A DNA stretch of 38,004 bases. It comes from Jimgerdemannia flammicorona. Taxonomy: Eukaryota. The number at the start of each line of letters is the position of its first letter. The first letter of the stretch is position 1. The DNA is taken from assembly GCA_003990765.1 (NCBI GenBank), contig RBNJ01000171.1, positions 1 to 38,004 of the forward strand, in the 5' to 3' direction. Shown here piece after piece: positions 11,400-38,004 of the stretch. Made by a program: the position numbers and the translations under genes. The notes beneath the pieces are model-generated. The model had not been told where the DNA came from. It did not search any database and was given only the letters and a program-made list of their open reading frames with translations.

Positions 11400-12010
11400 T
11401 ATACTACTCTAATATTTTGCACCCTCTAATCAAACTACTTCTCTATATCCTCAAATACCTCCTCTACCCAAATCTCACTTCCATCTTTACTCTATCTTCA
11501 TATCTATAACCTGAATCCTCTACATCTACCTCTATAACCCAAATCACCCACTTCTATCTCTATCATCTGAATATCCCACCTTTACCTCTACCATCCAAAT
11601 CTCTCACTTCTATCTCTACTATTTAAATTCTCTATCTCTATCTCTATTACTTAAATCTTCTATCTTTACCTTCTTCATCCAAATTCTCCACCTTCTCTAT
11701 TCAAATTTTCTACCTTCTCTATTTAAATTCCTCACCTCCTCTACTCAAATTCTCTATCTCTACCTCCTTCACCTTCTCTATCTCCTCTACCTAAAGCTCT
11801 ACCTCTCAAATGCCCCACCTTCACCTATCTGAATTCTCCACCTCTATCTTTACCATCTAAATTCTATATCTAAATCTCCTTTACCCAAATCCCTCACCTC
11901 CACCTCCTCTACCTAAACCTCCATCTCAATCTTCTTTACCCAAATCTTCATCTTTACTTCCTCCATCCAAACCCCCACCTCCATATATATGTCTTCACTA
12001 CTAAATTCAG
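11400..12010 (-). repeat. Degenerate low-complexity tract encoding an eroded (GGGGF/L)n Gly-rich sequence on the minus strand
   Basis: The plus strand is pyrimidine-rich with recurring acctc/ccaaa units. The minus strand reads YGGGGLDGGSKDEDLGKED*DGGLGRGGGGEGFG*. Confidence 0.6.
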
Positions 12011-13765
12011 TTTCTGAAGATGAATGGAGGTTAGAACAGTAAATATGCTAAGTTTGGAGATAGGAATTACTGCACCACTGCAAGGAACAGTTTACACAAT
12101 TCTAATATATACTTGAGCTTCAATGTGGTCAGAGTTGTATTCTGTTTCATAGATTCAACTAGTGCATATACTCCATAATTGCCCCAGAGATAAATATTAC
12201 ATAGTTGAACAAATGTGTGATAATCGAAAGCAGAAACCCACCTTGCAGCTATAAACATCAGAACATAAAATTTAAATATACTCTGGAGAATTAGCATAAT
12301 CCGATACATACACTAATTCAGAGTCTTAACCAGTTCATATGCTTCTATACTACCTATGTTGTTATTTAAAAATAAACATAAAATAGTTAGTATAGTCATG
12401 ATCTGAAACCCAGCATGTAGCCGCACATGACTATTCTCGAAGCTCCAACATATCTACAATATTCAGTATGTTCAGAATTGTTTTCTACTTCAGACCTGAC
12501 CAGTGTGTATACTCCCTTGCCGCCAATAATGATGTCTGCAAATGGACAGAATATGGGTGTCAATTTAAAACTAAAACCTATCATGCAGTTACACACATGT
12601 TTAACCTACTCTAGAGATTCAACGTGGTCGAAGTTGTATCCAGTTTTAGTGACTCGGTTAATGTGTATACTCCCTTATTGTTATGTTGTTGCCTTAAAAT
12701 AACTAAGGAAGATCGTGAGCTGAAATTGATCCCGCAACTGCACAGTTTTAACATACAGTAGAGCTTCAACCTGCTCAGAGATGTCTTCTGCTGAAGATAT
12801 TTAGCTAGTACACTTACTCCCTCGTTGCCGATGTTGTTGTCTGAAAATAAATAAGAAAACATGTAAAAATTGAGAACAGAAAATCACAATACAGCAAGCA
12901 AAATACAACGTTGTCAGGATCGCGCACTGCATTAGAGACTCGGCCAGTGAACATGCTCCCTTCATTCCAATGTTAATAACTGATGATGAATAAGGGATAA
13001 AAGAAAAAACATACGAAGAATATGAACAAAAACTCATCGTATGACTGAAAACAGCGATTTCTACAGATTTAACATACACGTGAAATTCAGCATCAGGGTC
13101 CTGTTCTACTTCAGAGACTTGGTCAAGTGTGCTTGCTCTGTCACCACCATTGATGTTTTCTGAAAATGAATAAGCAACCAGACAGAACTCATCACACAGT
13201 TGCAAATAACAGTTCATAAGTTCGAACATACTCTTAAGATTCAGTATGACCAGAGTCGTATTGTCCTTCAGAGCCAGGACTCCCTTGGCGCTTGTGCGAT
13301 TTTGAGAAAACAGGCACAGGTTGTGAGGTTATACCCACAACACAGCTATAAACAACCAGTTCTGACATACTCTTAAGATTCCGCATAACCAGAGTCGTGT
13401 TCTGGTTCAGAGATATGGCCAGGGCGCATACTCCTTCACCACCCAAATATGAAAAGAGGATTAATGAATAAGCATGCACACGCAGCTATAATCGACAGTT
13501 CACAATTTTAATATACCATCGAGGTTCATTGTGGTCAGACTTATATTCCGCTTCAGAGGCTCGATCAGTATACGTACTCCGTCGCTACAGATATCGTTGT
13601 CTGAAGATGATGATCAAATACGCCAAGATTGTAAGCTGGAACCCACTGCCTTAAACAACAGTTCACACATTTTTACCATTATATATGAGATTCAGCGTGA
13701 TCCGGGTTGTGTTCTGTTTCAAAAACTCACCCTGTGTGCATGCTCCCTCACCGCTGACGATTCAT
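11400..13765 (-). pseudogene. Decayed ribonuclease-inhibitor-type (28-aa) LRR gene with ~11 single-repeat exons and a Gly-rich terminal exon
   Basis: Exons 13517-13600 (NDICSDGVRILIEPLKRNISLTTMNLD) and 12757-12840 (NNIGNEGVSVLAKYLQQKTSLSRLKLY) are exactly 84 nt and phase 1. Other units show frameshifts, stops and lost AG/GT sites. Confidence 0.85.
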
Positions 13766-16923: not shown

Positions 16924-17661
16924 GTGAGGTATCATTTCATTCTTTTCGGGGGAGATAGGCGAGGATGGAGACGAGCTCGTTAAATGCGATTGTGCATGCG
17001 AACCTATTCAGAGGTCAGGACCACCTTGTTAAATACATCGAGCGCAAACTCCGTTGGAAGCACGCAAAGAAAATGCCGACCACGCGCGGCGTCCACCTCC
17101 CAGAGCCCGCCGACAAGGAGTTCCGCAACACACCCAACTGGAAGGACATCTTCGAGACCATTCACCCATTCCCAACTACGCGGCCTTTGCACATGACCTC
17201 GCCCTCCATGGACAAGCACCCACCACATCACCCACAGCGCCCAATCCGTAATTCGCTGGCCCTAGGTCGTCCACTACGCCAAAGAAATCGGTATTTTTTG
17301 CCGGGCAGGCGGAAGTTGACCCGGCGTCACCGCCATCGAGAAGAAGAGAAGAAGAGAAGAGGGGAAGATATAAGGACAGGCATCGGGCGTGGACGGGTCT
17401 CTGTCACGGCCCTCTCTACGCAGCGGCGGAGAGGAGTTGCAATCCAAGAGCATTGGGTCTGCGTTACGACCATTGCCAAAGGCTAGGTAGACTACGCCTG
17501 TTGCACCCGTTACAGCTGTAGAGTAGAGGTGCGTGAGCTCCCTGTCCTTGGCCTCGGCATATATATACCGAAGAGGGGACAGATTGAATGTTTAAATTCA
17601 CCGTTAAGCCACTGTCGAATATCCTTGCATCACTATTAAAGTATGGAAATTGTAAACTAAC

Positions 17662-18083
17662 CTGGATATAATGAGGACGTGGCGGATATCCTCAAGTTCC
17701 ATGGCATCGATTGGACACTCGCCGTGGCGACGCGGTTGCGAATATTCTCCGTGATGATGACGGCTGGCAGTCGCAGGAGGGATTTACAATCCTCGTAGTC
17801 GGTTTCCTATCAAATATTATTATTGACCAACCACCTATCGTGAAAACAGAAGCAAATGAAGATCAACCATGACAATCTCGGTGCCCAAGTCAAGGAACTG
17901 GGAGAAGTCCTTTTTTGCGACGACACGTAAGTGAATGCAGCCATCGCCATGACAATCACGACCATTTTGGTCGGACTCGTGGAGCAAGTACCCGGCCTCG
18001 CCGCCAGTGATGGCGAGAACTTGCTTGTAGGTGGTAATGGCACTTGCTTTGTTGGCGCTGGTGTTGGCAGTGCGGAATTCTGT
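17662..18083 (-). pseudogene. Degenerate duplicate of exons 1-2 of the NmrA-like gene at 20181-21830
   Basis: TEFRT..KQVLAITGGEAGYLLHESDQNGRDCHG..LDLGTEIV aligns with MESRT..KHILTITGG..AYLLRESERDGRDRH..RDMGAEIV. ETDYEDCKSL..ENIRNRV..IDAMELEDIRHVLIIS aligns with EIDYEDRKCL..EMTRNRV..IEAVESENIRHVLMIS. The ATG has become ACA, and deletions and a frameshift are present. Confidence 0.85.
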
Positions 18084-18385: not shown

Positions 18386-20180
18386 ACGCACGCCATCACC
18401 AGCTTGAGACGAACCCCACCATAAGCGGCACTCCGAGCCACGGACGCGAGCACCGCCCACATCTCCATCCACCGGCGTTGCGGCCTTGTTGTCTTCGGCG
18501 TCTACATCCACGGACGTCGATCAGCGCCGCGTTGGCAGTAAAGGAGAGAAAGAGGTTGACGACGTGGAAGACTCAGATGTTTAGAAAGATCTGCCGCAGG
18601 ATTTTATTAAGCGTAGGGAAATCATGGTCTTCAGGACCCGATCATTGAATACCCGGAAGGCTGCTAGGAGGGACGCCCAGAAGATGGAAGAGTAGTTGTC
18701 GAAAAGGTCAGGAGAGAAACGACACGAGGGGGAAGTTGGGCCGGCGGCAACGTGTTGACTGTCGAGAGAGAGATGGGCAAAGGCTTAGTATCTGCACATC
18801 AACCTCTTGGAGCTCATCGCAAACCCGAATTCGACCCAACTTAGCCATGCCTTTTTCTCACAACCCCACAATTGCTGCTGCCTCCCTGCATTTCTCGCCC
18901 GCCTCGACGGAAGAGACTTAATGAGACATTCACATCAGCATTGTGGCGCACCCAAATTTGGCTGTTTCGCCGTGTCGCCTGCTGCGTGATTGATGTGAGT
19001 GGTGTGACAGCGGTATCCCGGAGTCAGTGAGAGGATCGAATTGCAATTAGTGGTAGAGTAAATAAGAATTACTAAAATAACACTTGCACCCGACGTCTCC
19101 TTGTGGTATTCAAAATTATCCACTGCGGCTAAAATCTTCAACAGTATTCTGGTTTGGCATTCCTACCGGGTGCACTAATAGTTTAGTTTCGACTTGGATT
19201 TATCGCTTTTGGGCGTTTGTTTATTGTGATGCATTCCGTTATTATCCACATCTTCCAATTCATTTTATATGGCCAGGTGATATAAGACACCCTGCGCAAA
19301 ATACGCAAGCTGACTTTCCTCGTACTTCCGAACCAATGCTGAAATAAGAGGAGATATTTCGACTGCAGTGGAGGCACCTCCCTTTTCAATGCTTGAGATT
19401 TTTATTTTATTTTTCTTTGCAGATGTCTCTCATTCGGTTCGCAAGGCTACGTTTTCTCGGCTAGCCCCCACCACGCATAAAGATACGCCTTGCCAAGCTG
19501 GTATGGCATTCCCTGCCTTTCATTGCTTGAGTTTTATTCGCCTTTAAGAATTTTTTTTTTTTTTTTTTATTCTTTTATTTTATTTTTGCACGTGTGTTGG
19601 ACATCAAATTTCATATTTCAAATCCTCTTCTTTAGTAAATTCCTCGGCTAGGCTGGGTTGCGAGGACGGGCCTGAAATCCAGACGAGGACTCGACCATTG
19701 TGCCGCGACCTACGAGGAAAAGAACAAAGATGATTTCCTAAATGCGCCACATTATTATACAAATAAGAAAAGCATGTCGTGGTGTATAAATGCACTTTTG
19801 GGTTGCAAAGCTTGTTCAATGGGAGAGCGTCTGCCCAAGGAGAGAGAGGGATGAGGGAAACTTGCGTCTCCTGTAAATTAAATTTGGAAAAGATTGATTA
19901 AATTTCTTTGTGGCATCTTTGGATCCTGGCCGTTTGGCAGACGCGAACCGTCTAAATTTGGAACACCCCCCCCCTCCGTATTCGGCTCAAGACTATCGTA
20001 TGGCTCAAATTAAGCACAGACATAATTGTTTTCATTTGTTTATTCACTTTGCATTGCTTCCGCTATTGTATTTTATTCTAATATTATGGGATTGCGATTT
20101 ATTTATTTTATTATTTTCAACCTCGGAACGAAGCCCGGTTTATTTGTCAGGTCATTCAGCTCAGCACACAGCGCGCTGCC

Positions 20181-21830
20181 TCACTTCCGGCGATCGACCT
20201 CGTCGCGGTTGCGTTTGTCATCATCGCCCCTGAACTCGTCACGATGCTCCCTGAAGAATTCCTCAAGCGATTCGGGCTTCTTGTCGATAATGTCTTGGAG
20301 GTCACCTGTACATAAAGGAAGGTTTAGTGGAATTGTATATACGTGGACGTAATGGGATTCGATGGACAGTAATGTAACAACGGAGACTACCAGAAGTAAA
20401 ATCAGCACCGCCCAATTTGACATATTCAAAGAAGTCGAGCTCCGTTTCAATGGTAGTATCGTTAAGGTGCTTCCTCAGCGGAATACCGTGGCGGAACTTG
20501 CCATCACGATGGCGGCGACCGTCGCGCTCGCTGTCGTTACCATCGTCCTTCCTACTACCGTCGCGACGCTCATCGTCCCGATGTTCACCTCCGCGCCTAC
20601 CGTGCTTCCCATCTTCGTCGCGCCACGACTCCAGTTCCCTCCTCATTTCGGAACGCGACACGTCCTTGAACCGTATCTCGCGCTCGCCAATAGTGTCGCC
20701 GAGAATGCGCGCAATCTCATCGCCGGAAACGGCCTCGCAGCCCGTGAGGCAGTACACGCGGCGGTGGTGGCGCTCGTCCAGAGGAACCCAGCGGAAACTC
20801 TGCGAGCTTCCCTTGGCCTGAGCCTGGGCCTGGGCCTGGGCCTGGGTCTGGGTCTGGGCGGGGCTATGATCACCATGGCGGTCGCCATAGCGGTGGTGGC
20901 GAGTAAGGGAACAGTAAATGGCGCGGCAGACGTCGAGGATATTGACGGGAGCAAAACGACCGTCGCGGCCGATGCTCATTTTGAGAACGCGTTCGTCCTG
21001 GATCGTGGGGGCCCAGGAGAGGAAGCATTGCTGGAGGAAGTCGAGCCTACGCAGGGATTGTAAGTAGTGAGGGATTCGTCAGATGTTCTTGAAGGGCGTG
21101 TGAGTAACCTGATTGGAAGTGAAAATGGCTTTTACCTGAAGATGCACCACCTTCCCCTGGTGAAGTTGTCCTTGAGGCACTTCTCAAGATCCCTGAATTC
21201 GCAGAGGTTCCTGAGCTCGCGGTTGTGGGACTCGGCACCGATCCTGAAAAGCAAACCGAGGGAACGTTAGTGCCTAAATTATCATTATCATCCCAATCCC
21301 GAGAGAATGTCTAGTCAAGAGAGCTCACATGGATATCATAAGGACATGACGAATGTTCTCGCTTTCCACAGCCTCGATAAGACACTCTCCGTGGCGAACC
21401 CGATTGCGAGTCATTTCCGGGACGAAGATGGCGTACTCGCTGTCGCGGAAGGCGCGACGCAGGCACTTGCGGTCCTCGTAGTCGATTTCCTATCCAATAG
21501 CATCCACATTAGCATCCATGCAACCATCCCATTCGATGCTAACAAATAGCTGTAAATAAAATAAATACGCTAACGGATACTTACAACAATTTCGGCGCCC
21601 ATATCCCTCAAATCGTCGCAATTCTTCTCGCAACAGCACAAAACGCGGATGCGGCACTCGCTGTGGCGGTCGCGGCCGTCGCGCTCCGACTCACGGAGAA
21701 GGTACGCCGCGATGCAGTGGCCGAGGTAACTGTCGCCGCCCGTGATGGTAAGAATGTGCTTGGTGCGGGTGACGGCGCCGGCGTAGGCGCTGGCGTTTGT
21801 TCTGGCGGTGGTGGTGGTGCGGGATTCCAT
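20181..21830 (-). CDS. NmrA-like / atypical SDR NAD(P)-binding Rossmann-fold protein; exons 21830-21585, 21489-21329, 21243-21136, 21046-20391, 20305-20181
   Basis: All introns are GT-AG and the frame is preserved. It has an N-terminal ITGGDSYLG dinucleotide-binding motif, FAPVNILDVCRAI, VYCLTGCEAVSGDEIARILGDTIG and a C-terminal DLQDIIDKKPESLEEFFREH typical of the NmrA family. Confidence 0.9.
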
Positions 21831-22363
21831 TATTACTTTTTTTTGGAGGAAGGAAGTGGGCTAGAGTTGCTTAGTTGTTATGTTGTGAGATAATATGGTG
21901 AAAAGATGTTGGAAGGGGGGCTTTATATGATACTGGGTCAGAATGTCGCTTTGTTCTCGGAGAATTCAGGATTGCATTCATAGCTACATACGCCAACGAT
22001 TGGCGTGCAGGGTTAAAATGTGCCTGAGGTGCAGTGGCGCAACGGTGTCATATTTCCCCCACCCCCTTTTTTTTTTTTTTTTTTCACACGCACGTCCATG
22101 CATTTTTATGTAGTTCGTCTCTAGCGGGTTTCCAAAGATTTTTTTCTTCGTGGTCTGGGTGGTTATTTATTTATGTCATTTATATAATATATATATAATA
22201 TTTTAGTAAAATAATTTTTTATATCAATGATCACTAATTTCGCAGTTTATATCACGTGATCGGCATTATTCTCACATTGGTTTTATGTTTACTTTACTCA
22301 AATAGAGAACAATTTTCCTACTTGCAATAAGACGTCAAGTCAAATATATTATAATATCCTTAA

Positions 22364-22479
22364 TTGCAAGCTGCAAGCCAGCTGCAAGCTGCAAACTGCA
22401 AGTTGCAACCCTCAAGCCACATTCACCGCATTCACCGCATTCACCGCATTCATTCACCGCATTCGCCGCGTTCGCCGCA
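22364..22479. repeat. Short tandem repeats (gctgcaa)n and (cattcaccg)n
   Basis: Directly visible. Confidence 0.85.
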
Positions 22480-23071
22480 TATAAAATCAATAGATTAAAT
22501 AATTTTTGAGAAATACATTGAGGTGAATGGTATTTCTTGACAACATTTTCAGCATGAGCTAATTTAAGTCCTTTCTGAAAAGCAATCATATATCTTTGTA
22601 GTAAGTTCTACATAAATATTACAATAATAAATATAGAGTTATGAACAAAGTTCAAACTGCAGCAAAGTGGTGTGAACCATACAACATTCATTTAAGTAAT
22701 GCAGTCTTGCAATTCACCCTAGTAATATTCGTTTCAGCAGTATAGTTATGCAATTCACTCTAGCTCAGTTTCACTTGTAGTCTTAGCCTCCCTTTTAGTC
22801 TAATTTAGTCCAGTTTTAAGTACACCAGTTTCAGTCTAATTTAGTCCAGTTTCAAGTACACCAGCAGCCATAATGCACTTCCTTCCTTCAGTGCTCATTA
22901 CTTTACCTTCAAGCATACTTTTCATTATGCAGACATTTCTATTGTATTTTTGTATCTTTAATCAATTTTTATACATTATCTGTCATCATACCACCTATTT
23001 GTCAGTTGTAAGGCCTACCCTCTGGTTTCTCCACTCCTGCTGCCCCTTACCTATATCTAACAATTTCTAAC

Positions 23072-24275
23072 TTATCTAGCTTATATGCTCTACACAAGGA
23101 CCAACTGATTGTACTTTGCCACAAATATGACCTTTCAATCAAGGGTCAAAAGGTGGTCTTGGTTATATGCCTTGATACTAATTAACCACACTCAGATCCA
23201 TTGGTCTCAGAGCCTTTAAGGTAGGCTCTTATATTTCTTCCCAACAGTCAAGCTATGTACTGATCAAATAGCTAATTTCCATACTCACCACTCATCTTAA
23301 TGGACCACTAGTCTTAGCTCCAATGTCTATTAGTACCAATATTATCTTCTCCCCCATCCCACTACTAGGTCCACTATCAGCAATTCTCCCTCTTCTACTG
23401 CTACCAATCTCATTACCCTTGCAATTTTCTTTATCACCTACCTCTCTTTATGATGAGCTATCTATTCCTCCATTTGTTTCTGATATAGTCTTATATTGAG
23501 ATTAGATACTACCAGAGCTGTTGACTTTACTCAAATCTGGTGAATAACAAATTTTGATTGAGTGGATGGATAATGCTCTTCTGTCTTATTTGAGCAACCA
23601 GAAGAAACCAGATACTTACCTGTCAGACTGTGACCTCAATTTACCACTTTGGCTAGAGGCTATATTTAATATTTATGGTATATTATTATCACTAAGTATT
23701 ATCTAAGCTACTTTCTACACTACTTATACTATACAGCTCCTCTTTTTTTTTTATAGTCACTTACTATATAGCTCCTCATACACATCATCTTCATTATCAA
23801 GGCCATCAACAATTGGTATGATTGGGCTACTCTTCAGTATTTTGACTGGCAGATCTGCACATTAAAGACTTCTTTCACAGAACTTAACATTGGTAATCCA
23901 GACACAGTTTGGCATATATTTGAGACAATCACTGGCCAGCTTATATCTGTACTGCTTATCTATTAACCTATATATCAGCTTATCTATACAGCCTTCTCTC
24001 CTATAGATAACCTCAAGATAACCTTATCTCATCCTTTTTTATACTTTTGGTATGAGGTACAGGGGTATATATTGACTACCTACACCCAAACCCCACTTTC
24101 ACAACTCACATTTTCCATTAAACCCAATGATACTATTGCTACTGATGGTGCTGCCAGCTCTATCTGTCATAGCTACAATAGTATTAGCTACTGTGGTAAT
24201 TGTAATAGTTCTCATATTTATCTCTTCTGTTATAGCTTGCATCTAGGTATAGAATGTATTACTCACTACAGCTAA
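23072..24275 (+). pseudogene. Ngaro ORF1 (gag-like) remnant with an N-terminal SAP-like motif and a C-terminal Cys/His finger
   Basis: LSSLYALHKDQLIVLCHKYDLSIKGQKVVLVICL at 23072-23176; ICHSYN..YCGNCNSSHIYLFCYSLHLGIEC near 24160-24260. Confidence 0.65.
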
Positions 24276-24319
24276 GCTTGTCCCTCCATTAGTATCTCAT
24301 TCTCTCACAAGCTCTTATC

Positions 24320-25850
24320 ATCTCACTGAGTGGATAGATGCTCTTCATTTTCATTCCAATCAGTCTCTTGTTCAGTACTACTTAATGGGCCTCCACTGAG
24401 ACTATCTTTATAGCAATCACTCCTATTCTGAGCTCTGCATTGATTACATCTCTAACAATCTGACTTTAGCATTTAGTTACCAAGATGTTCTTACTATGAA
24501 TATCTTTATAAAACTGCAAGTGGGCCATTATCTAGGCCACTTTTCATCTCTCTTGGTCTTATCATCCAAGTTTCACCCCTTTTGCAATACTTCTTTGGAT
24601 GTTATACCAAAGAAAAGCTCTACAAAATTTCATATAATTTAACACCTGTTCTTCCTCAAAGGGGCCTCAGTCAATGATGGCATTAATCCTGAGGAGTTTT
24701 TGATTTAGTATCAGTCTGTTCAGTTCATCATTCAGCTGCTTTTAGAGATAGATCCCACCATACTCTTTTGGAAGACAGACATCACCAAAGCTATCTACAC
24801 TATTCCAGTCTATCAGTCCAACTGGGCCTTGTAAGGCATTTGCTGGCTTGGTCTCTTTTTCCTAGATATATATATATCTCTCATTTAGCCTTCACTCTGC
24901 ACTATTCATATTTACATTACTTATGGACTTATTCACATGGATCTGCATTCACCTGTATCACCTTCCGAATTTGGGCCATTTTGTAGATGATTTTATCTAC
25001 ATTACATTGCCCTCTACTGCATTTTCCACTTATGTAAGATTCCATACCATTACTACTCAGTTTGGTCTCCCTCTTAAGAAGGCTAAGGACATTCTGTCTA
25101 CACCTACAATAGAGTATGTGGGCTTCCTTCTTAATGCTCTGAACATGACCATTAGCCTTCTTACTGACAAATGTACATACATTCTCTCTCTGCTAGCCAA
25201 TTGGCTTTTACTATTACATTATTATTATCATTCTTGCCCTCATTCCTGGTCTTACCACAAAGCTCAATCTCTCTCAGACCATCTTATGCACATTGTATAA
25301 GTCCTTTCCAAAGGGAAAGTATTCTGTGATTCTGTTATTTAGTTTACATCTGCTTTAAAACTGCTCTATGTAGGACATTATTATATATCTTTCTATATAG
25401 TTACCAATTTTCAATGATAATAAGATGTCTTATGCTCATGGACAGATTATTGCCTGTTTTTCCACTTCAAGTGATTGGACTGTAGTCTATATACAGACAC
25501 ATCTGGGACCAATAGCACCAGTGGCCTCTTTGGCCAATACTAGTGGAGTATTCAGTGGACCCTATTGTTTTGTTGGTAGAATAGCTATGAAATTTTCTGA
25601 AAGAAGATGTTTGCTATTTGGGTCTTGCTATTGCTATAGGCTTTCTTCTTTCAGCATCAAGATATTATTTTATAGTACAATAGACAACCCTATATTGAGT
25701 CTTTAACTAGTGGTCAGACTTAGCACCATCTCCTTATTAATGATCTTTTACATTGTATTATTATCTTATATCTCAATATAGATTTCAACATCCAAGCTCA
25801 TTATATTCCTTCTGTCTCTAACTCTACCAATTCTCTTTTTCATCTTCTTT
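24320..25850 (+). pseudogene. Ngaro reverse transcriptase and RNase H remnant
   Basis: SLDVIPKKSSTKFHII*HL..GASVNDGI, WKTDITKAIYTIPV, HFVDDFIYI, IEYVGFLLN; RNase H motifs YTDTSG and IQAHYIPSVSN. Confidence 0.88.
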
Positions 25851-25949
25851 ATCTCCCTACTCACTCTTAGAAATCTCTTCCTTCATCAGTTATATCTCTC
25901 TTTGGCTTTGCTATCAATTTGTATCCTGTCTCTATCAGTACTCTCACAC

Positions 25950-26830
25950 CTGGACTGATAAGCTCTGACCTAGCACTAACTCTTTCTACCATTTTCTAAG
26001 GATCTGTGGTATTACTGATGTCAACATATTCCCTCTTCATAATGACCTTCTCAGTTACTGGCTTATGACTGGCTAATGATTGGAAAATATATACCACTAT
26101 CAAGAACTACTTCTATAATATTGCTGCTTATCAATTGGCTTGCTAGTAGAGCCTTTCTCTCCTTTGTGCATCTTTACCCTCATTCAACCTGGTTTTGAAA
26201 TCAATTCAAAGCCACCCCCCCACATCCTTTTGCTCTCTTGAGTACTGCCCAGTTACTTATCAACTACAATCTATCTATACTGCTCTTCTCCTCGAAACAC
26301 CATTTGATACTATGATTTGGGCAGCCATATATACAGTATTCTTCAGCCTCATATAGATTGGTGAATTGACATCTTCTGATAGTACTTCACTTCTTTCACC
26401 CTGGCTGGCTCACTGGTACTATCTTCAGTGGTACTGGGACTCTATACTCTCTTGGCCATTTTGGTCTCTACATCTACCTTGGACCAAAACTGGCATCTCT
26501 GATGATGTGTTTTTGGATTATTCTGGTGCCTTTGATTATCTCTGTTCAGCAATTGATAATATAGTTTATATCTGTCCCTCTGATCTTGATGACTCAGTTT
26601 TCTGCATTGATCTCTTTCAGCCTTTATATTACTCAATGTTCATCAATACTATTTGGGGTCTATTAGCTGATATCTTTTTGGCTACTGGTATTTATGGCCA
26701 CTTCTTTCACATTGGTGGCATCACTCTTCTCACATCTGCAGGTTACCCAGATCATATTATTCAACTTGCTGATCATTGGAAGTCTATGGCTTCCTGTATT
26801 ACATTTGGCAGCTTGATCACATTTTGCCTC
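25950..26830 (+). pseudogene. Ngaro tyrosine recombinase remnant
   Basis: IWAAIYTVFFSLI*IGELT (eroded LRxGE), LPWTKT, and GHFFHIGGITLLTSAGYPDHIIQLADHWKS (eroded GHSFRIGGAT...GRWKS). Confidence 0.9.
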
Positions 26831-28229
26831 AGATGGCAGCAACTCTAGCAACACTGCTCCTATCCGATTTTCAACAGGCTGTGGGTTTGGTCAGTAGTGG
26901 TCCAAAGGTGCTCACAAGTGGTCAGTAGTACTAATACTATGTTTAGGTGTCTCACTCACTTCCCAGGCCTGTGGTATTGATCCCTTCACATATATATATA
27001 TAAATGACAGACCTTGAAAAGCCCAAATCCATATCTGGTCTTTTTGTATTCTGGTTTTTACTTAATATTTTCAATTACTCCTTTTTACTATACTTTCATT
27101 TATTTTATAATCCACACACCATACATTTACTCTACATACTCTGTAAACCCTCATATGCAAGACACTTTGATAGAGTTATGAATGAAGTTCAAACTACAGC
27201 AAAGTGGCACAAACCATGCAATATTCATTTAAGTAATGCAGTCTTACAATTTACCCTAGTAATATTTTTTTCAGTAGTACAGTTATATAATTTACTCTAG
27301 CTCAGTTTCACTTATAGTCTTAGCCTCTCTTTTAGTCTAATTTAGTCTATTTTAAGTATGCCAGTTTCAGTCTAATTTAGTCCAGTTTCAAGTATGCCAG
27401 CAGCCATAATACACTTCCTTCCTTTAGTATTCATTGCTTTACCTTCAAGCATACTCTTCATTACACAGACATTACTATTGTATTTTTGTATCTTCAATCA
27501 ATTTTTACACATCTCTCTCACCCATCTCTTTTGGAATAAATAGATATTAGCTTCTTCATATATATATATAAATAGTGGACCTTGAAAAGCCCAAACCCAT
27601 ATCTGGTCTTTTTGTATTCTAGTTTTTGCTTAATATTTTCAATTACTCCTTTTCACTATACTTTTATTTATTTTACAATCCACACACACTATATATTTAC
27701 TCTACACACTCTGCAAACCATCATGTGTAAGATACTTTATAAATATATATAATATATATTACTTACCTATAATTTATTTTTTCAGTAAATTCTTAAAAAA
27801 GTGATTTTTATATTTTGAAGAGATAAAATTTATATTATACATATAATAGTTGTTCTATTTATATACTTTACTTCTTCTTTTTTTTTAATTTTTTTTTTTT
27901 TTTGATAAAAGCTCAAGTATTTTAATTTCTCATAATAATTTTTTTTTTTTGCTTTTTATAAGTACTGTAAACTTTATTCTATTAGATTCTATATATAGCA
28001 AATTGTCTACATACTAAATTGGTAGCAATTATTCTATATAAAGAAGATACAGACCAGTAATCTCAAGAGAGACTATTAACTAATATCTTTCTTCCATCTC
28101 ACCCCCTGGTTATCTAATAATAAGTAGCTCTAACTTTCTAGTATAATATCTTGTACTCTCTTTAGGATACTCAATTAATTCTACTTTCTATAGTACTAGT
28201 ACCCCTATATCACTTCTTAGAGTAGCTAT

Positions 28230-28304
28230 TATTGGAATGACAACTTGATATATCAATATATAACTTATGCAACTTCAATAAAGTGTCTCTCTTTTTTTAC
28301 AATA
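28230..28304 (+). repeat. Copia 5' LTR (internally shortened)
   Basis: tattggaatgacaact...aataaagtgtctctctttttttacaata matches both ends of the 3' LTR; TG..CA termini eroded to TA..TA. Confidence 0.8.
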
Positions 28305-28524
28305 AAGGTTATGAGCTCTACTAGTACTGAGCAGTAATAGTATATAAATATATCTCTTTAAAATATACTATACTAGAAATATCTGATAAATAGCCTAGCA
28401 ATATGAGTACAGAAATAGATATATCAATCATAAGTATTTCTACAGATGTAACCACAATAACAACTGTAACAGGTATAGGAAATATAGTCTCAATTATAAG
28501 CATAAATATAGCCAAGAGGTCTAT

Positions 28525-29691
28525 AGCTCCTTTTTCTACTATATATCTCACTGGTTACAAGATTTGGTAAGCAATCTTCTAAGTCTACTTTCTACATCTA
28601 ATACTTTCTCTATCTTGAGTTGGTTTGCTGTATCTATTGCAGAGTTGTAGGAGGGAGGCAATGGTGATGGATTACCTCTTTATCAGTATTGAATCAGTGT
28701 CTTCTTTATTTTTTCACAGTTTCTAATATCTTTGGCTATATCTAGAGTATACTTGTTTTGATATAATACCTTCTTCCTTTTGCCATCATTAATAAGATAT
28801 AATCTGATATATTATAGACTATATATGGAGTTGGTCAACCTTGGATATTAAGTGCCAGTATAGGTTATCTGCAGGTCCTTGGTATCTGTGGTTGGACTAT
28901 CTTAGCTTTGGTAAGCTTTTCAGCAAGCACAGTTCTAGTATAGGTAATTGCTTTTCAGGTAGAGCCAGGATAGGAGGGGAGATAGCTATTACAGATAAGT
29001 AGAAGAGCAATTATGGTAGACTAGTAGAGTGTTAGGCTGAGAGTAGTTATTGAGACTGAGGTGAGTACTGCTTCAGTGGGGCATTTTGATTTGTATGGGA
29101 CAGTTAGATAATAGGTGGCACTTTTAGCTGCTTTTGGCAATTCATAGAGTTGGGCCCCAGTTATTGGGGGTGCCTGGGGGGCCTGAGGCTACCTAGGTCA
29201 GATATCTTAGCTATACTCAACTAAAACTGAGAGCTGATATAGTAATATGTTTAAGGTCTATAGACTTGAGTAGTGGGATATTGGAGTCTTCTCTTGCCTT
29301 ATATATAAGTTCTCTACTTATCTTACTTGGGAGACCAGGCTCTATCTATCATTCTATGCTTTGAGGAGGGTTTTTTCTTTACCTATCATTCCACTTGAGA
29401 TGGTAGAGACTATTTTATTTGGCTTAAGCATGGTCTTGTACATATGTTGGGTTTTGGATATATGCTTTTAGTTATTGATATAACACTGAGTTCCCTCTGA
29501 TAGTAGAGAGAGCATAGTGTACAGAATAAGATACAGACCATATAGGCCCTACTGTACTTAGTATAGTTGAGCTACTAGACAATTGCTAGCCTAGGTTTAA
29601 TGAAGGAGTAGTGCTCAGTAGGTAGTGGGGGAGGGTTTTGGCCTATATAGTCTAGGTCCTATTTCAATAAAAATCCACAGAACTCTGAGTC

Positions 29692-29731
<40 letters not shown>
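28525..29731 (+). mobile_element. Poly(A)-tailed retroposed insertion (5'-truncated LINE or other retrocopy) inside Copia gag
   Basis: 17-bp TSD atagccaagaggtctat at 28508-28524 and 29732-29748; AATAAA at 29666; 37-nt poly(A) at 29695-29731. Removing it restores the gag frame (..AKRSISIFNRKDYMI*VFHITNLLEKYDL). Confidence 0.92.
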
Positions 29732-29734
<3 letters not shown>

Positions 29735-31445
29735 GCCAAGAGGTCTATCTCAATCTTTAATAGGAAAGATTATATGATCTGAGTATTCCATATAACAAAT
29801 CTTCTTGAAAAATATGACTTGGCAGAGTATACAAAACCACAAGTACTGATTTCAGATTACAATAGTAAAAATAATATTTGAGTATTACACAAGATTGCAT
29901 TCATACTATCTAACTCTCAAATGAAGCTTATAATATATATATCAACTGCTCATAAGGCCTGAGAAACTCTATGCAATCATTATATGCAAATATCTATATC
30001 AAATTAATTCCACTTGAAATCTCAACTATTTAATCTATAGATAAAGCCAAAGAAGGCCATTTACAAATATGATAGTTGTATCAATAATCTGGTAAATCAG
30101 GTGAACTTGCTAATTATATTAACACAATATATAAGCAATGAAGACAAGGTCTTAGCTCTTATAAAGAACCTCTCCAAGAGATATCACAACATAGTGGTAG
30201 CTATGTAAGAGAGTAGTAAACTTATAGATTATCCTCATGTCATAACAAGCCTCATGAATGAGGAAATGTACCAAGAAAACAGTACTGATGATGATAAAAA
30301 TACATTCTACAGATCACACAGACATAGTTGGTAGATTTGGTAGATTTGATAAATTTGACAGTAAAACTGTAATCTATATATATTGCTTGCATAAAGAATA
30401 TCAGTTTCAGTAGTGTTGGTATTATTACATTTCTCTTTGCTATAATAACTCTTTCTGCTATCTCTATATTGCCAATGCTAGCTTTCATGTTGTTGCTTAT
30501 TTTTACCACTCTTCTTATCATTTTCCCAGTGATAACAGTTGTACTTCCTGTATCTATACTTGCTATAATATTCACAGTAACCATTATACTTGATTGATTG
30601 GCTGCTATCACATTGATTTTGGATTTGGGTTTATTGATCTTATTGTCTATACTTTTGATCTCATTTGGCAATTAAGCAATCTATCATCTATAAATTCCAG
30701 TCAACAGTCATACACTTTTCACTTAATGAAAAGTATTAATAATATCAATACTGCCAGTAGTAAAAATGCCAATAAAGAGAGTAATCCTGGCTATATATAT
30801 ATCTAGTGAATGTACTATAAATATAGCCAATGATAATAATGTCTGAGTAATGGATTCTAAAGCTATATAATATATGATACTCAATAGAAAATAGTTCTCT
30901 ATATATGAGCCTTTCAAATATTTTGTACCTAATAAACTAGGAGACAACAATATCATTTATACTCAAGAAAAGGAAAATGTCAGAATATATCTCCAAGGCA
31001 ATATTGTCAAACTCACTAGCATCTTCCTAGATATACTATATACTCCAGAAATTGGTAAGAATCTCTTTTTGATGAGAAAAATAATATCTCACCGCAACAA
31101 AGAGATATATATATATATAGAAGACACTATAGTATATAATTCATATAATAATGAGCTAATGATAGCCTTAACATATAGTAATCTTTACATGATCAATGAG
31201 ATGCTAAATAGTATGAAAGTCTCTATATATATAATAATTACATCTGATATGTCCAATATATAGCATCAATGTTTAGGATATATCAGTAAGATGAACCTTA
31301 AATATCTGATAAGGAGTAAATCTATTAGTAAATTACCACTGAATATATATCTCAGAAACAATTTTTTCTGTAAGAATTGTATAGCAAAAAAAGGTATCTC
31401 AGCAACTATTCAAAGAATGGTTAAAGTATATATCTGGGATCCTTG

Positions 31446-31483
<38 letters not shown>

Positions 31484-32078
31484 TCAATATATACCATTTT
31501 ACTCTGAGAAGAAGTATTTTATCATATTTATCAATAATTATATATATAAGATATATATATACTTTCTATTAGCAAAGAACAAAGTACTGGAGAAATTTAA
31601 AGAATTCAAAGCAATTGCTGAAAATGAAACAGGATATAGAATATATGCTATACAATCAGACAACAGATGTGAATATATCAATGATATATTCAGACAATTC
31701 TTAAAAAATATATATATATATAATAACAAATAACAGCTCTCTATATGACTTAGCAAAATGATATAACTGGGTGATTTAACTATATAGTCATAGAAATAGC
31801 TTATATAATAATTAATACAGTAAGATTGAGATCTCCTATTGGGCTGAAGTAATCAATATAGTAATATATATTGTGACGTATGCAATTGACAATGGAGTAC
31901 CAGTGACTGCTAAGATCAGATGACATAATGGCATGACAATCAAATAGACAGCCTGACCCATTAGGTGATCATCCCAAAAGAAGACAAGATGATCCAAGCC
32001 AAAATGAAGACCATGTTATTTAAGAAACCATACTCTACCTCAGGGATTGGCACCAAAGAACCAAGTATCCACTACATA

Positions 32079-33065
32079 ATGCCTCCCATTCGCCGAACCA
32101 ACCAGACCTCCCGCCACTCTACCCCTTTGTCTGGCCCAAAGATCCTGATCTTTGAAGCTATCAAGAAGGCCATCTGGCGCCCAGATACTTCCGAACACTT
32201 GAACTTCTACACTAAGGACCTTGGACACTTCATCAACTACCGGTATATAATGACCCAACAGCTCAAAGACACTACCAAACGAATGACCCTCTGGCATGAC
32301 TATGAAATCAGACACCACCTTTATAATGAGACTCAAGAAGACAACCGGGAAGGCCTCATTACTGAATTGATAACCACTAGCCAGCTAATCAAGAGAGCCC
32401 TCCGTGTCCACCAAATCTTCCACCATATTCCCTGGGCCATAGCACACTTGTAAGGAGTAATGGCTGGCAGCCTCTCCTACCTTTCAACTGAAGATGCTGA
32501 CTGGATAGAATCTGAAGTAGCCAACTCTATTGGCAGCAACTGCGTTGCCGTAGGAAGCCAACAAACCAAACCTACTCAATCAGGTTTCCACACCACCCCA
32601 CTCCGAGACAACCATCAAGGTCACCTAATGAGTCTTATGGAGATATTTGAAGGACCGCCCATTACCATAGAAGCATCTGTTGGAGCTACCCCTACCACCT
32701 ACCACCCTGTCAGCCACAATTCACATCTCATCATTTGGGAACCGAATCAAGAAGGAGCCCAAGAGGTCCCTGTCTTTGAAGAAGAAGCCCAAGAACTCCA
32801 AGACCCTGCCCCTGAAGAAATCCCCTCTGACACTGAAACTGATGAGTCTTCAGAAGAAGAAGAGGAGCAACAGAGAGTCTACCAGTCCTCTGTCCGCATT
32901 CAAGCTGTTCAAGGGTTGGAGAATGTTGTTGAAGATGACTGGCCACTTTTCTACCCCCTCACCTCTTGGCCGGTGCTTCCCCCTTTTGAGGAGAGGTATG
33001 ATGAAGAAGAAATCTTAACCCAGCAAGGTTTGCCCGCCACAGATGAAGAGTACTATTTCCTCTAG
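32079..33065 (+). CDS. Unknown protein encoded within the putative solo LTR; two in-frame ORFs separated by a single TAA (32451-32453); acidic C-terminus
   Basis: ORFs 31965-32453 and 32460-33065 are in the same frame (CAC TTG TAA GGA GTA ATG). The start could be the ATG at 31989, 32004 or 32079. No recognisable gag/pol motif. Confidence 0.6.
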
Positions 33066-33105
33066 AAGCACCACCCATCAGCCATGAGAATTGTGCAGCC
33101 TTCAT

Positions 33106-33240
33106 GTCAGCAAGTCAGCAAGTCCATTTCCAGCATTGCTATCCAGTGCAACTGTTTTCAGCATTTTGTCAGCAAGTCCATTTCCAGCATTGCTATCCAG
33201 TGCAACCATTTTCAGCGTTTTGTCAGCAAGTCAGCAACAC
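33106..33240. repeat. 54-bp tandem repeats in the putative U3 region
   Basis: gtcagcaagtccatttccagcattgctatccagtgcaac occurs twice, plus partial copies. Confidence 0.9.
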
Positions 33241-33504
33241 TCGTTTTCAGTGTTGCCACCCTTTACAACCGTTTCTGGCAACAATTAGCACTCCTGTCTG
33301 CTCATCCGAATCCAGCATTGCTATCCCCTACAACCTAATCCATAGTAAACAATAGCCTGCACCTCGCATCGTACAAGCCAATAGCAAAGCAGAGTTTGCC
33401 ACAATATAGTATACCTTAGCCTTAGTCACACCCCCCCCCATAGCTAGCAAACTTGTATAAATAACCCATATTCTTAGAGTGAATAAACCTCAGTCAGTTC
33501 TAGT

Positions 33505-33808
33505 TTACAAAGAAACCACTGTCTCCAAGAGACCGGAAAATTCTGAGAACAAGATAACAACCTAGAGCAACGGATCGCTCAGAAGTTTGAGTTAAGAAAT
33601 TTCTCTTGCCGCCCGAATTTCAAGTTTTGCTGCCATGAAAAGGATTCAAGACCACAGACTACCCACAAGTCAGTCAGTTTGTATTTAAAAGTAAAAAGGA
33701 TTACAAAGAAACCACTGCCTCCAAGAGACCGGATAAATTCTGAGAACAAGATAACAACCTAGAGCAACGGATCGCTCAGAAGTTTGAGTTAAAGAATTTT
33801 CTCTTACC
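33505..33808. repeat. ~110-bp direct duplication in the putative R/U5 region (33505-33610 and 33700-33808)
   Basis: ttacaaagaaaccactg.ctccaagagaccgga..ttctgagaacaagataacaacctagagcaacggatcgctcagaagtttgagttaa occurs twice. Confidence 0.92.
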
Positions 33809-36574
33809 ATGGAAAGAAAACGTTACCCGACCACTGCCATTCATGACCCAGCCAAGGATTCAAGACTATGACTGCCGTGCATTTCAGACCACTATTCGGA
33901 CCACCACCATTCAACTGCCATTCGAGATTCAAGACCCAGAAACCCAGGGATACCCAGCCAAAGGATACTAGACCGCCAAAGACCGACCCGCTGTCAAAGA
34001 CCCGAATGACCACCAGGAACCTTTCAAGTTAATAAGTCAAGATGGACGAGCAAGCCGTCAACCTCCATTTTCCTGACCTACTGCACCACGGACCACTTTA
34101 ATTGACTACATAAAGAGTAAGCCTGTCATTGCCGTATAAATTCAAGTTCGCCACCAAGTTAATCGCCGCCAGGAAACTTAGCCAGCATAACTGCCGCCCT
34201 TATCTACTAAACAATTGAGCCATCATCGAACGATCTCTCGCTATTATCAATTACCGCATGAATCGAACGACCTGTCACGTGACCATCGACCCATAACCAT
34301 CGCGAATGCACTCAGACATATACCGCGCACTTCACCAAGTGGCACATTGAGCAGTGCCAGAAGAGAGATAGAGATACAAACCCGATGCCACAATATATAT
34401 AATTAATGTATTTCTTGAGTACTAAGCAAAGAAGCCAGCAACAACAATAAGTATAAGGATAATGATCTCACTCCTGAAGAATTATAGAGTAAAATTAAGT
34501 CTGATATATCACATCTATATATATTTAGTTACAAGACATTCATTCTTAATAAAAGTAATACTAATCAGTATAAATTTAAGCCAAAAGCTGGCAAACACAT
34601 ATTTCTTAAGTGTTCTGGCACTGGTAAGACATATAGACTCTGGGATCCATGTAAGTAGTATATTATCATTTAGTATAATATATAATTCAGAGAAAAAGAA
34701 AATAAAGAATCCTGTATAGATATATTAGTATATATATCTACATCTATATCCCAGTTATGTAGTACAAGTGTACCAACTATCATCAATCTCATCAGCAGTC
34801 AATTGAAATTATTTTCAACCACTATATATACCTGAGCCAGAGTTGCCTGAGCTAAGAATAATGGAGATCAAGGATAAAGATGATAATAAATTCAATACTG
34901 AGAGATCCTCTACAAAGAATAAGCAAAAGCATTCCAATATTCACTAAGAAACCCATTCTGAATTAGGAAGTTATTAGGATATACCAGTGAGCCCTAGATA
35001 GTAGTAATATCAAGACCATATGAGCTATACTGAAGTATATAAATATATATATATTATAAAATCTGGTGAGTCAAATATATATAACAATACCATACAATCT
35101 CTAGATAGCAAAAAATGGGAATATATAATAGATAAGGAGTATGATTTACTCATCAAGAATAATATATAGGATTTTATACTCCTTCTATCAAATTATCAAA
35201 TAATTGGATCCAAATGGGTTTATAGAATCAAGTATAAGAGCAATGAAAGTATAGAGCAATATAAAGCTTATTTCATTGCTAAGAGTTATTTACAGGATTA
35301 TGATGTAGATTATAATGAGATATTTTTACTAGTATTTAAGCTTACTTTACTAAAAATACTTATCATGATCAGTATACTATATAATCTGGAAATCTATCAA
35401 ATGGATATCAAGACAGCATTTCTGAATGGTGATATAGATACTGAACTATATATTCATCAATTACAAGAATACAAAAAAGATGAGCTCATATATAAACTAT
35501 ATAAGAGACTATATAGTATTAAGCAAGTAATATAACTATAAAATAAAAGAATTAATAAACATCTCCTTAATAATGAATTCACCCACTACAAAGCAGATAA
35601 TTATATATATCCAGTACTATAATGATGGCAGTAAAGTCTTCATTGGAATCTGGATTGATGATATTATTGTTATTACTAGAAAAATAAGCTTAATAGAGTT
35701 AAAGAAGCTTTATACTGAGAATTCAGAATGATAGATATGGGTGATACATCCTTCCTTTTGGGGATATCTATCATATATAATAGAAACTGTATACTATATA
35801 TCTCTCACAAGTGATATATACTCAAATAATCCTTAAACATTTCACTATGAATAAATGCAAACATATCAGTACTTATGAATACTTCTGTAAAGTTAAGGAA
35901 GCTAGATACTACTCTCAAGGATGATGACAATATGCTAGCTAAAAATAGTACCAAAGATATACTGTATTAGTAAGCAGTTGGTTCTCTTATATATCTCATA
36001 CTGAAAATGAGGTCTGATATATTATGTATATACTATAAATAAGATAGCACAGTATTTCTCTTGTTATGATAATTTATATTAGAACACTGTCAAGAGAATA
36101 TTTAGGTATCTTAAGGATATAGAATATTATACTCTTGTATTAGATAATGGTGATAGTGAGAGAAATGACAAAGAGAATAATATTCAGCTATCTAGTATAT
36201 ATAATACAGATTGGGCAGGTAATCTTAACAACTGCCAATCTATGACTGAGTATCTCTTCTATATCAGTAAAAACAACCAAGGGTCTATTATCTCATGGTA
36301 AATATATAAGTAATTATCTATAGTAATATCATCAATATAGGCAGAGTATCAGAAATTATCATTAGAAATAAAGAAAGCTTTTGGCTTCATAAACTATTAA
36401 AAGAAGTTGGATTCACTCAAAAATAAAGCACTATACTATATTAGAATAACTTATCTATAATTGTACTTACTAAGAATTTAGTATATTATAGTAAAATAAA
36501 ATATATTAATATATAGTATTATTTCATTTATAAATGTATAGAAAATAATACTATATACTTGGAATATATTCTTA

Positions 36575-36780
36575 TCCCTTACTCTGTAATGCAGCCGAAT
36601 TTGGCTGCAAAAAAAAAAAACTATAAAAATATTATAAAAATCAAAAGAAAATCAAAAAAATAAAATTATCAAAAAAAAATTTCATATAATTTTATAATAA
36701 ATATTAAGTCAAAAAAAAATTTAAAAATTTAAAATTTTTTTGCAGCCAAATTTAGCTGCATTATATTACAGAATAAGGGA
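36575..36780. mobile_element. MITE (Tc1/mariner-type, TA target duplication) inside Copia RNase H
   Basis: TA|tcccttactctgtaatgcagccgaatttggctgcaaaaaa ... ttttttgcagccaaatttagctgcattatattacagaataaggga|TA; ~40-bp TIRs around an A/T-rich core. Confidence 0.9.
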
Positions 36781-37181
36781 TAGTATATGATCACTAATTC
36801 ACTTACAAAAGCTCTTCTAAAGCTAAAGTTTAAGCTATACATATAAGAAATAAGTCTTATGAGTAATATACTAGTTTAGTGGTTAATTATAAGATACTTT
36901 TCAGACTCTAAAAAGTCCCTCCTACTATATTTGCATTATTCTTATATTATTTACATCCACATTATGCATTCTTACTACATTTCTCATCTATAAGTGGATT
37001 TTGTAGATATTTTAGATATTATGAAATACTTTTTGACCTACAATAATTTTTTAGATATAGGATTTTATAATAGTAATTTAAGTTATATATAGTTCTAGTT
37101 TTTGTATACATTGTATTACTTTTTTACTCTAGTTTATATTCTCTTTTCTTTTTCAAATTTATATATCTTATTGAGTGGGAG

Positions 37182-37310
37182 TATTGAAATGGTAACTCAA
37201 TATATTAATATATAACTTATATCATTCTATTAGATTTACATTATTCATTAGTAATATATAAAATATATAACCTATATAACTTTAATAAAGTATCTCTCTT
37301 TTTTACAATA
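37182..37310 (+). repeat. Copia 3' LTR
   Basis: Follows the polypurine tract and shares both ends with 28230-28304. Confidence 0.85.
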
Positions 37311-38004
37311 CTTAAGATATAGAGATATTACTCAAAATAAATAGACTTTATAAAATATACAATTCTCTTTAGAATTTACTTTATATAAATATCTATACAA
37401 TAATAACTTCAGATTTTTAAAAAAGATATTTAGCAATATCTGCTCAACTGATTTCAATTATTGATTTTGAGTATTCTATATCTTTTCTTATAGAATTTGA
37501 TATATGATTTATATTGATATCTTATTTTACTAATCTTGAATGATTTTCTGAAGATATTACTCAACTTTTACAAATAACTATATCTGAGTATACTAGTTCT
37601 ATAAAGATATTTTTGGCTTATATATGAGAATTCATTACTGATGAAGTTTTAAAGTATATTATATTCTATCTTGAGTAGTATTATTATACTTTATTATTTG
37701 TTCATACAGATGATACACTTGAGAAGATATATTGAGCTTTAGAAGAATTTGACAAAGTAAAGAAAATCTTTATAAAGGTATCTTCAAATCAGCTTCAGAT
37801 ATATAAACTATAAATAATATAATACTGAAAAGAGTATATATATTAAGAAGTGTGGCACTTCTAACAACTATGATATAGAGTCAGGGTGGACGCTGGCGCA
37901 GTTTGGTGGTGAGGATCTGTGAGCAAAGTGGAGAAAGGGTGGAAATGGTATTAGACAAGGTGGTCTTTCATAGGGAAGGAGTAGGGGGGGGGGGGCCCCC
38001 TAGG

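Follow-up and report, generated by a model that had tools for sequence, protein, structure and literature searches.

CpG- and CpA-directed C-to-T decay of a nested retrotransposon block beside spared genes in a probable early-diverging fungus

In fungal transposons, CpG mutation signatures are reported to correlate with Masc2-type enzymes and CpA signatures with RID, and the two occur together in Tuber melanosporum (PMC4352252, which, like the other papers cited below, is drawn on here in part). RID, on which canonical repeat-induced point mutation (RIP) depends, is reported to be exclusive to Pezizomycotina, and DIM-2-like homologues are reported in Endogonales and Glomeromycota (PMC9963178). 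A 2025 kingdom-wide k-mer screen placed RIP-like signatures in ascomycetes only, as far as the consulted part of that paper goes (PMC12543289), and early-diverging fungi are mostly treated as N6-methyladenine organisms with little 5-methylcytosine (5mC) (PMC13297926). Here, we analyze a window of 38,004 nucleotides (contig RBNJ01000171.1; the window is the whole stretch of DNA under study) in which a block of dead retrotransposons, running from position 22477 to the window end, differs sharply from the adjoining genes and bears the marks of C-to-T change at CpG and, at a lower rate, at CpA.

The genic part of the window (bases 1-22480) has a GC content of 45% and contains 1,191 CpGs, with a CpG observed/expected ratio (O/E) of 1.04. 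From 22477 to the window end, the DNA is AT rich (GC 22-37%) and almost without CpG except in a 2,521-base insert; with the insert left out, 13,007 bases hold 8 CpGs (at 22730, 24966, 26293, 26865, 31093, 36596, 37891, and 37897). The left edge is formed by a CpG-rich satellite of CATTCACCG-like 9-mers (22416-22480, from the tandem-repeat rows and the CpG list), within which lies the final genic CpG, at 22476. An earlier note on this DNA had described few CpGs outside the insert, a sharp boundary near 22480, and insert coordinates of 31872-34392, and these figures bear it out on all three points, the 62 CpGs of the insert spanning 31877 to 34383. TpA rises from an O/E of 0.81 in genic DNA to 1.03-1.19 in the block. 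In the two old elements that make up most of the block, the O/E is 0.01-0.03 for CpG, 1.02-1.31 for CpA, and 0.86-1.16 for TpG, so that neither CpA nor TpG is depleted.

Dead retrotransposons, one nested in another, make up the block: a split-repeat retroelement and a degenerate Copia element that carries the younger insert. The first is a degenerate element of 5.1 kb on the plus strand (22633-27738; GC 36%, 4 CpGs), whose split direct repeats run A1 ... B1-A2-B2, an arrangement that we take to be the Ngaro/PAT-like layout of the DIRS order. Repeat alignments place A1 at 22633-22976 and A2 at 27170-27512 (89% identity, with 36 mismatches and 1 gap opening in 344 columns), and B1 at 26989-27168, abutting A2, and B2 at 27557-27738 (89% identity), all on the plus strand. 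The two pairs together give 523 aligned columns with 54 differences, of which 51 are transitions and 3 are transversions; the claim that A1 and A2 differ almost entirely by transitions thus holds, and the examples quoted for it (gaaCAaag/gaaTGaag, ggTGTGaa/ggCACAaa, aaCAtt/aaTAtt, and aTGCAa/aTATAa) are all found in the alignments. Single differences between CA or TG in one copy and TA in the other account for 31 of the 51 transitions, and 14 more form 7 reciprocal CA/TG sites; the remaining 6 comprise 4 at pyrimidines before an unchanged C or T and 2 with a variable neighbor. At each reciprocal site, one ancestral CpG decayed on different strands in the two copies, and therefore the element had CpGs at insertion and lost them in place.

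The 3' neighbor governs which pyrimidines differ between copies: 31 of 169 before A, 2 of 58 before C, 2 of 179 before T, and 0 of 46 before G, all 46 pyrimidines before a fixed G being already TpG. The excess at pyrimidines before A (YpA) over those before C or T (4 of 237) corresponds to a Fisher odds ratio of 13 (p = 4.6e-9). Under a C>T-only model, the counts amount to mutation of about 25% of CpA sites per copy, against about 2-3% of CpC and CpT sites, at 11% total divergence. CpA is thus hit about 10 times as hard as CpT or CpC, yet CpG has been hit harder still, and the best reading of the rates is CpG far above CpA and CpA far above CpT and CpC. The base 3' of CpA has no effect, TpCpA is not favored, and TpC is found at 6 variable and 15 conserved sites; a purine 5' of C may be favored (18 of 26 variable versus 12 of 36 conserved sites, an exploratory comparison of small numbers). 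A CHG-type, plant-like methylation was considered and rejected, the base following CpA being without effect. The two strands of the repeat copies are similarly hit (31 C>T and 20 G>A) in an interleaved manner, and a strand-run test for burst-like mutation on these copies detected no clustering.

C5-methyltransferase-family enzymes, unlike APOBEC-type deaminases, typically depend on the 3' base in this manner (G and then A). Editing of the retroelement cDNA or RNA by APOBEC- or ADAR-like enzymes before integration is a highly improbable source of these changes, even though retroelements are known targets of such enzymes. The A and B copies differ inside a single integrated element, which dates the changes to after integration if the copies were alike at insertion, as they are in the split-repeat replication model. 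Moreover, the near equality of the strands, the 3'-base specificity without preference for TpC, and the presence of likewise CpG-free spacer DNA between the elements all speak against editing of this kind.

The direction of change was read from the second element, an old Ty1/Copia element on the plus strand (28189-37402, about 6.7 kb without the insert; GC 25-30%, 2 CpGs) recognized by Pfam, by tblastn to polyproteins, and by its long terminal repeat (LTR)-like ends (28189-28392 and 37201-37402, about 70% alike). We aligned 89 Copia polyproteins, mostly from plants, by tblastn (35-46% identity to the reverse transcriptase frame of the window) and kept the codons at which at least 10 homologues aligned and at least 70% agreed, which left 394 codons, 154 unchanged and 240 changed. 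Among the changed codons, single G>A (49) and C>T (21) changes outnumber A>G (6) and T>C (4) changes by 70 to 10; the others need at least two changes (96), are single transversions (38), or are ambiguous (26). The neighbor preference recurs in this element: of the 21 C>T codons, 18 have a purine as 3' neighbor (14 A and 4 G), and of the 49 G>A codons, 32 have a pyrimidine as 5' neighbor (22 T and 10 C). In the RNase H motif, where 14 aligned Copia homologues read H-I-(Q/D)-L-R-Y-H-F-I-R-(S/E), the window has YINI*YYFIYK (36502-36534, plus strand), three invariant His codons now being TAT and two Arg codons now being TAG and TAT. This agrees with the decay of HIDIRYHFIRE through CAT>TAT, CGG>TAG, and CGT>TAT that had been suggested from the letters alone. 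Together, the codon counts and the His-to-TAT changes set the direction as C to T, on either strand.

Could decay of methylated CpG alone account for the spectrum, with the excess of CA/TG-to-TA differences being a general neutral neighbor effect or a small-sample accident? The sample is indeed just 54 differences, but the Fisher test speaks strongly against an accident, and we regard this explanation as very unlikely. A CpG dyad has no one-step route to TpA, since a dyad deaminated on both strands gives rise to one TG and one CA daughter; the gain of TpA therefore requires true hits at CpA, the second hit falling on a CpA that CpG decay has left. In the LTR pair of the Copia element, 4 of the 5 differences in the reliable 43-base core are between CA or TG and TA (the full LTR alignment, with 30 transitions and 45 transversions at about 70% identity, is unreliable, and the core alone was used). 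Three genic duplicates (1954-2129/2184-2372, 2688-2912/3387-3605, and 17657-17816/21324-21499) show 70 transitions and 59 transversions, and their differences by 3' neighbor (A, 10 of 83; C, 16 of 100; T, 13 of 104; G, 15 of 82) have no YpA bias; each copy retains 8-19 CpGs. These duplicates are 160-229 bases long and 70-77% identical, and two of the three are coding and thus under selection, which makes them a useful rather than an ideal control. A further small control comes from contigs of run X1, which shares 9% of the window's words and is sparse over the transposons: among 40 of the 396 differences listed between the genic window and these contigs, 13 are transversions and 27 are transitions, 3 of the latter at YpA. 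The CpA/TpG-to-TpA excess beyond CpG decay that the earlier note had proposed is accordingly found in the repeats and is absent from the genic duplicates of the window, and the outcome that would have spoken against it, namely CpA/TpG transitions no commoner than other non-CpG transitions, is not what the counts of 31 in 169 and 4 in 237 show. That the short genic duplicates are unaffected would fit either a length or identity threshold or a mere lack of targeting.

The elements of the block stand at different points of the same course. The insert, which shows an early stage of the block's decay, has a CpG O/E of 0.48, a TpA O/E of 0.71, and a GC content of 46%; the split-repeat element has values of 0.03, 1.03, and 36%; and the Copia element has values of 0.01-0.02, 1.18, and 25-30%. 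In the insert, TpG stands at an O/E of 1.30, and its internal repeats differ by one reciprocal TG/CA site and one CA/CG site.

RIP is commonly called at a TpA/ApT ratio of at least 0.89, a (CpA+TpG)/(ApC+GpT) ratio of at most 1.03, and a composite index above 0. The RIP-index check suggested in the earlier note gave a divided result. TpA/ApT is 1.00-1.03 in the two old elements, within the RIP range, but (CpA+TpG)/(ApC+GpT), at 1.16-1.32, and the composite index, at -0.12 to -0.32, both fall outside it. The second ratio remains high because CpG decay replenishes the pool of CpA and TpG, and standard RIP indices can thus miss decay of the CpG-plus-CpA type. The sole segment with a positive composite index (0.56) is the 509 bases at 27739-28247, with a GC content of 22%.

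We propose, with about even confidence, that the pattern reflects transposon-confined, cytosine-methyltransferase-linked C-to-T decay, brought about by heavy 5mC and cumulative deamination. The elements would decay in place at a rate set by the base 3' of C, with CpG essentially saturated and CpA changing about 10 times faster than CpT or CpC. Transposon chromatin would carry heavy 5mC that is then deaminated; a DNMT1-class enzyme would maintain CpG methylation, and a DIM-2-like enzyme of that family may supply a weaker, CpA-directed non-CG activity. The decay would accumulate over time, as a gradual rather than a premeiotic, homology-triggered change. We favor cumulative methylation-linked deamination over a RIP-like mutator because the elements form a graded series and mutations do not fall in strand runs.

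A homology-triggered RIP-like mutator, probably active in the sexual cycle and deaminating C in repeats at CpG and CpA, is a lesser but real possibility; its enzyme would be a DNMT1-family member other than RID, for example, the DIM-2-like one reported in Endogonales. In Neurospora, DIM-2 can power a second RIP pathway. A CpA-directed C>T bias together with a transition-to-transversion count of 51:3 is a hallmark of RIP, the change is exactly limited to transposon DNA with sharp edges, and the pairing of CpG with CpA is that of T. melanosporum, Aspergillus niger, and Aspergillus fumigatus (PMC4352252). The failed indices, the absence of strand-coordinated runs, and the mild intermediate state of the insert do not fit such a mutator well, nor do the reported restriction of RID to Pezizomycotina (PMC9963178) and that of RIP-like signatures to ascomycetes in the part of the k-mer screen that we draw on (PMC12543289).

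Several points weigh against methylation-linked decay as we propose it. DIM-2 is described in a review as preferring CpT, not CpA (PMC13297926), and the CpA signature goes with RID, which is expected to be absent in this lineage (PMC4352252), so that an active RIP-type enzyme would account for the CpA bias no less well than passive decay. The left edge is razor sharp, with 9 intact CpGs of the satellite less than 50 bases from the CpG-free block, which is unusual if methylation spreads. Finally, the spectrum comes from two repeat pairs of a single element, with 54 differences in all, complemented by codons compared with Copia homologues that are distant and mostly from plants.

A sequencing or bisulfite artifact was considered and rejected: conversion would strike the unmethylated genes rather than the transposons and would do so without CpG/CpA specificity.

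What the spectrum means depends on the host, and here an NmrA-like gene on the minus strand is informative. Its largest exon (20392-21045) and its GT..AG introns of 85-95 bases (20306-20390, 21047-21135, 21244-21328, and 21490-21584) were delimited by joints in run X1 contigs. A search of 1.84 billion representatives with the exon gave 40 relatives at E <= 0.001, of which 30 were examined; 9 clusters carry an organism name, none of them from Dikarya, and the two best matches overall carry none. The closest named clusters are two from Jimgerdemannia flammicorona (49% and 52% identity; E 1.9e-16 and 3.5e-14), and the others are from Podila epicladia, Racocetra persica, Bifiguratus adelaidae, Cokeromyces recurvatus, Geosiphon pyriformis, Actinomortierella ambigua, and Spizellomyces punctatus. 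A taxonomy look-up assigns Jimgerdemannia and Bifiguratus to Endogonales and Racocetra to Glomeromycota; Podila, Cokeromyces, Geosiphon, Actinomortierella, and Spizellomyces are early-diverging fungi as well. Judged from this one gene family, the host very probably lies within the early-diverging fungi and, with less assurance, probably near Endogonales.

It is quite unlikely that the host is instead a Dikarya ascomycete with ordinary RID-dependent CpG-plus-CpA RIP, the affinities of one gene being misleading. The spectrum would match that of the Tuber and Aspergillus transposons (PMC4352252), and the first Atlas match of the NmrA-like frame is a cluster with few recorded members, mostly Ascomycota, although Atlas gave no usable taxonomy for this frame. 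However, the closest named clusters belong to Endogonales and none to Dikarya. Moreover, in a collection of 5.8 billion proteins, no relatives were found for a 437-amino-acid frame of the genic part (2328-3638) or, against longer proteins, for the NmrA-like exon, unlike what would be expected of a well-sampled ascomycete lineage. The Mucoromycota-like host that the earlier note had supposed is thus in line with the named relatives, and the ascomycete host that would have overturned its reasoning finds no support among them. Its broader inference, of a poorly described defence mutator or heavy non-CG methylation of repeats, is supported in both of its premises, the host and the CpA excess, as far as one window shows.

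The remaining features of the block concern the identity of its elements. In the Copia element, Pfam places gag (Retrotran_gag_2) at 30041-30205, Pol_BBD at 30895-31260, gag_pre-integrs at 31264-31443, and reverse transcriptase (RVT_2, E 5.6e-24) at 35026-36021, and Pfam with tblastn places integrase at 31491-31730 and RNase H at 36032-36570, all on the plus strand; the order gag, integrase, reverse transcriptase, and RNase H between LTRs is that of Ty1/Copia. The coding strand of this element is A rich, and G>A exceeds C>T on it (49 versus 21). In the split-repeat element, the plus strand is pyrimidine rich at 23000-28000 (GC skew of -0.17 to -0.34 and AT skew of -0.13 to -0.23), although the recombinase-like frame lies on that strand. 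The skews and the G>A excess may stem from a mutation process that acts unevenly on the two strands or from an asymmetry that the original elements already had. The stretch from the Copia 5' LTR to gag includes 38 consecutive A (29695-29732), perhaps the tail of a retroposed insertion, and run X1 contigs about 80% alike span 28.0-30.0 kb.

The last open frame of the split-repeat element, of 163 amino acids (26357-26845, plus strand), is likely a tyrosine-recombinase remnant: in Atlas, it reaches a feature score of 0.96 to eukaryotic clusters, with PF00589 on 12-13% of the members and 17 of the 30 hits in that set. No relatives of this frame were confirmed in the metagenome scan. Pfam gave no match on the element in six frames (with stops as X) or in open frames to an E value of 10, and its reverse transcriptase and RNase H were recognized by eye only.

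The insert (31872-34392, plus strand) interrupts the Copia integrase, begins and ends with TGTG...CACA, and is flanked on both sides by ATATA(T); these features suggest a solo LTR. Inside it are a tandem repeat of 54 bases (33114-33232), a direct repeat of 106 bases (33505-33610/33701-33808, 95% identical), and a 365-amino-acid frame (31965-33062) with one stop inside and no Pfam family, and run X1 contigs match it at about 88-95%.

Three further stretches are recognized by their composition. The AT-rich, CpG-free DNA from the satellite to A1 (22477-22632) has no match to B1 in the alignment and lies outside the repeat system, being old debris or else flanking DNA that also mutated. A CpG-free spacer separates the two elements (27739-28188). 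The tail beyond the Copia LTR (37403-38004) is CpG-free to 37890, and its two CpGs, at 37891 and 37897, are possible markers of the right edge of the block. Rfam and tRNA scans of the window returned no matches.

Pfam recognizes little in the genic part: a CHZ domain and a weak NERD match are all that it finds, and most frames belong to no family. The CHZ histone-chaperone domain (E 8.8e-9), the sole clear Pfam domain of the genic 22 kb, lies in a plus-strand frame at 5746-6402 and is followed by long acidic runs. The NERD nuclease match (E 3.6e-4) is under the Pfam cutoff and falls in the 437-amino-acid plus-strand frame, which contains an internal duplication (2688-2912/3387-3605) 71% identical in DNA; upstream of this frame lies a tandem duplication of 176-189 bases (1954-2129/2184-2372, 77% identical), and all copies retain CpGs. 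The NmrA-like gene (19900-21900, minus strand) has a long charged insertion and a paralogous piece, 70% identical, about 3.7 kb upstream at 17650-17820. Run X1 contigs 80-95% alike reach depths in the thousands over this gene, as would fit a family either highly expressed or many-copied in related organisms. Tandem repeats of 22, 28, and 56 bases form a C-rich array (11450-11930; GC skew of -0.65) within 2.4 kb of intermediate composition between that of the genes and that of the transposon block (11000-13400; GC 37%, CpG O/E 0.49), which may be another partly decayed repeat.

What is new here, on the evidence of one window, is RIP-like or 5mC-linked transposon decay with CpG far above CpA, in a host probably outside Dikarya. 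We found no report of CpG-plus-CpA hypermutation in Endogonales in the open-access literature searched, including the consulted parts of PMC7928374 and PMC10386755; in that literature, C-to-T change of repeats at CpA goes with ascomycetes and with RID (PMC4352252). Clear decay of this type in an Endogonales-like genome would show methyltransferase-linked mutagenesis shaping large, transposon-rich Mucoromycota genomes, would offer a candidate role for the DIM-2-like genes reported in Endogonales, and would supply a lineage in which to ask whether RIP-type mutagenesis needs RID. A bolder and tentative proposal is that Endogonales-like Mucoromycota possess a RID-independent RIP-like mutator, run by a DIM-2/DNMT1-class enzyme, that deaminates CpG and CpA in transposons. 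If so, methyltransferase-driven C-to-T defence would predate Dikarya or have arisen twice, and screens based on indices or k-mers would overlook it, since CpG decay keeps restoring the CpA/TpG pool.

Compared with canonical, RID-dependent RIP in Neurospora crassa and other Pezizomycotina, the block shares the dominance of C:G-to-T:A changes in transposons, the preference for CpA over CpT and CpC, the stop codons and AT enrichment, and the sparing of adjoining genes. It differs in that CpG is hit hardest and nearly eliminated, in that CpA and TpG are not depleted overall, so that the indices fail, and in its host, which the gene evidence places outside the ascomycetes. RID is reported as absent outside Pezizomycotina (PMC9963178). 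Deamination of methylated CpG would explain the depletion of CpG and the gain of TpG and CpA in the transposons, but the excess is not limited to CpG (31 CA/TG-to-TA differences versus 4 at CpC or CpT). The target dinucleotides are those of T. melanosporum, A. niger, and A. fumigatus, the genome of Tuber, a mycorrhizal fungus, being likewise transposon rich with CpG-methylated transposons; those fungi carry RID/Masc1, however, whereas DNMT1 and DIM-2-like enzymes only are expected in the present lineage (PMC4352252). The CpG/TpCpG hypermutation of Basidiomycota resembles the block in its decay of repeat CpGs outside RID-bearing fungi, ascribed to methylation and deamination, but, in the part of that study drawn on, no other C context is raised there, while CpA is raised about tenfold here (PMC3318451). 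Phycomyces blakesleeanus, a member of Mucoromycota, is also early diverging and has DNMT1 plus Dim-2, with methylation of 2.2% at CG versus 0.3% at CHG and 0.5% at CHH (H being A, C, or T); that record is a methylation map rather than a mutational one, and the part consulted describes no CpA-biased decay of repeats (PMC7862722).

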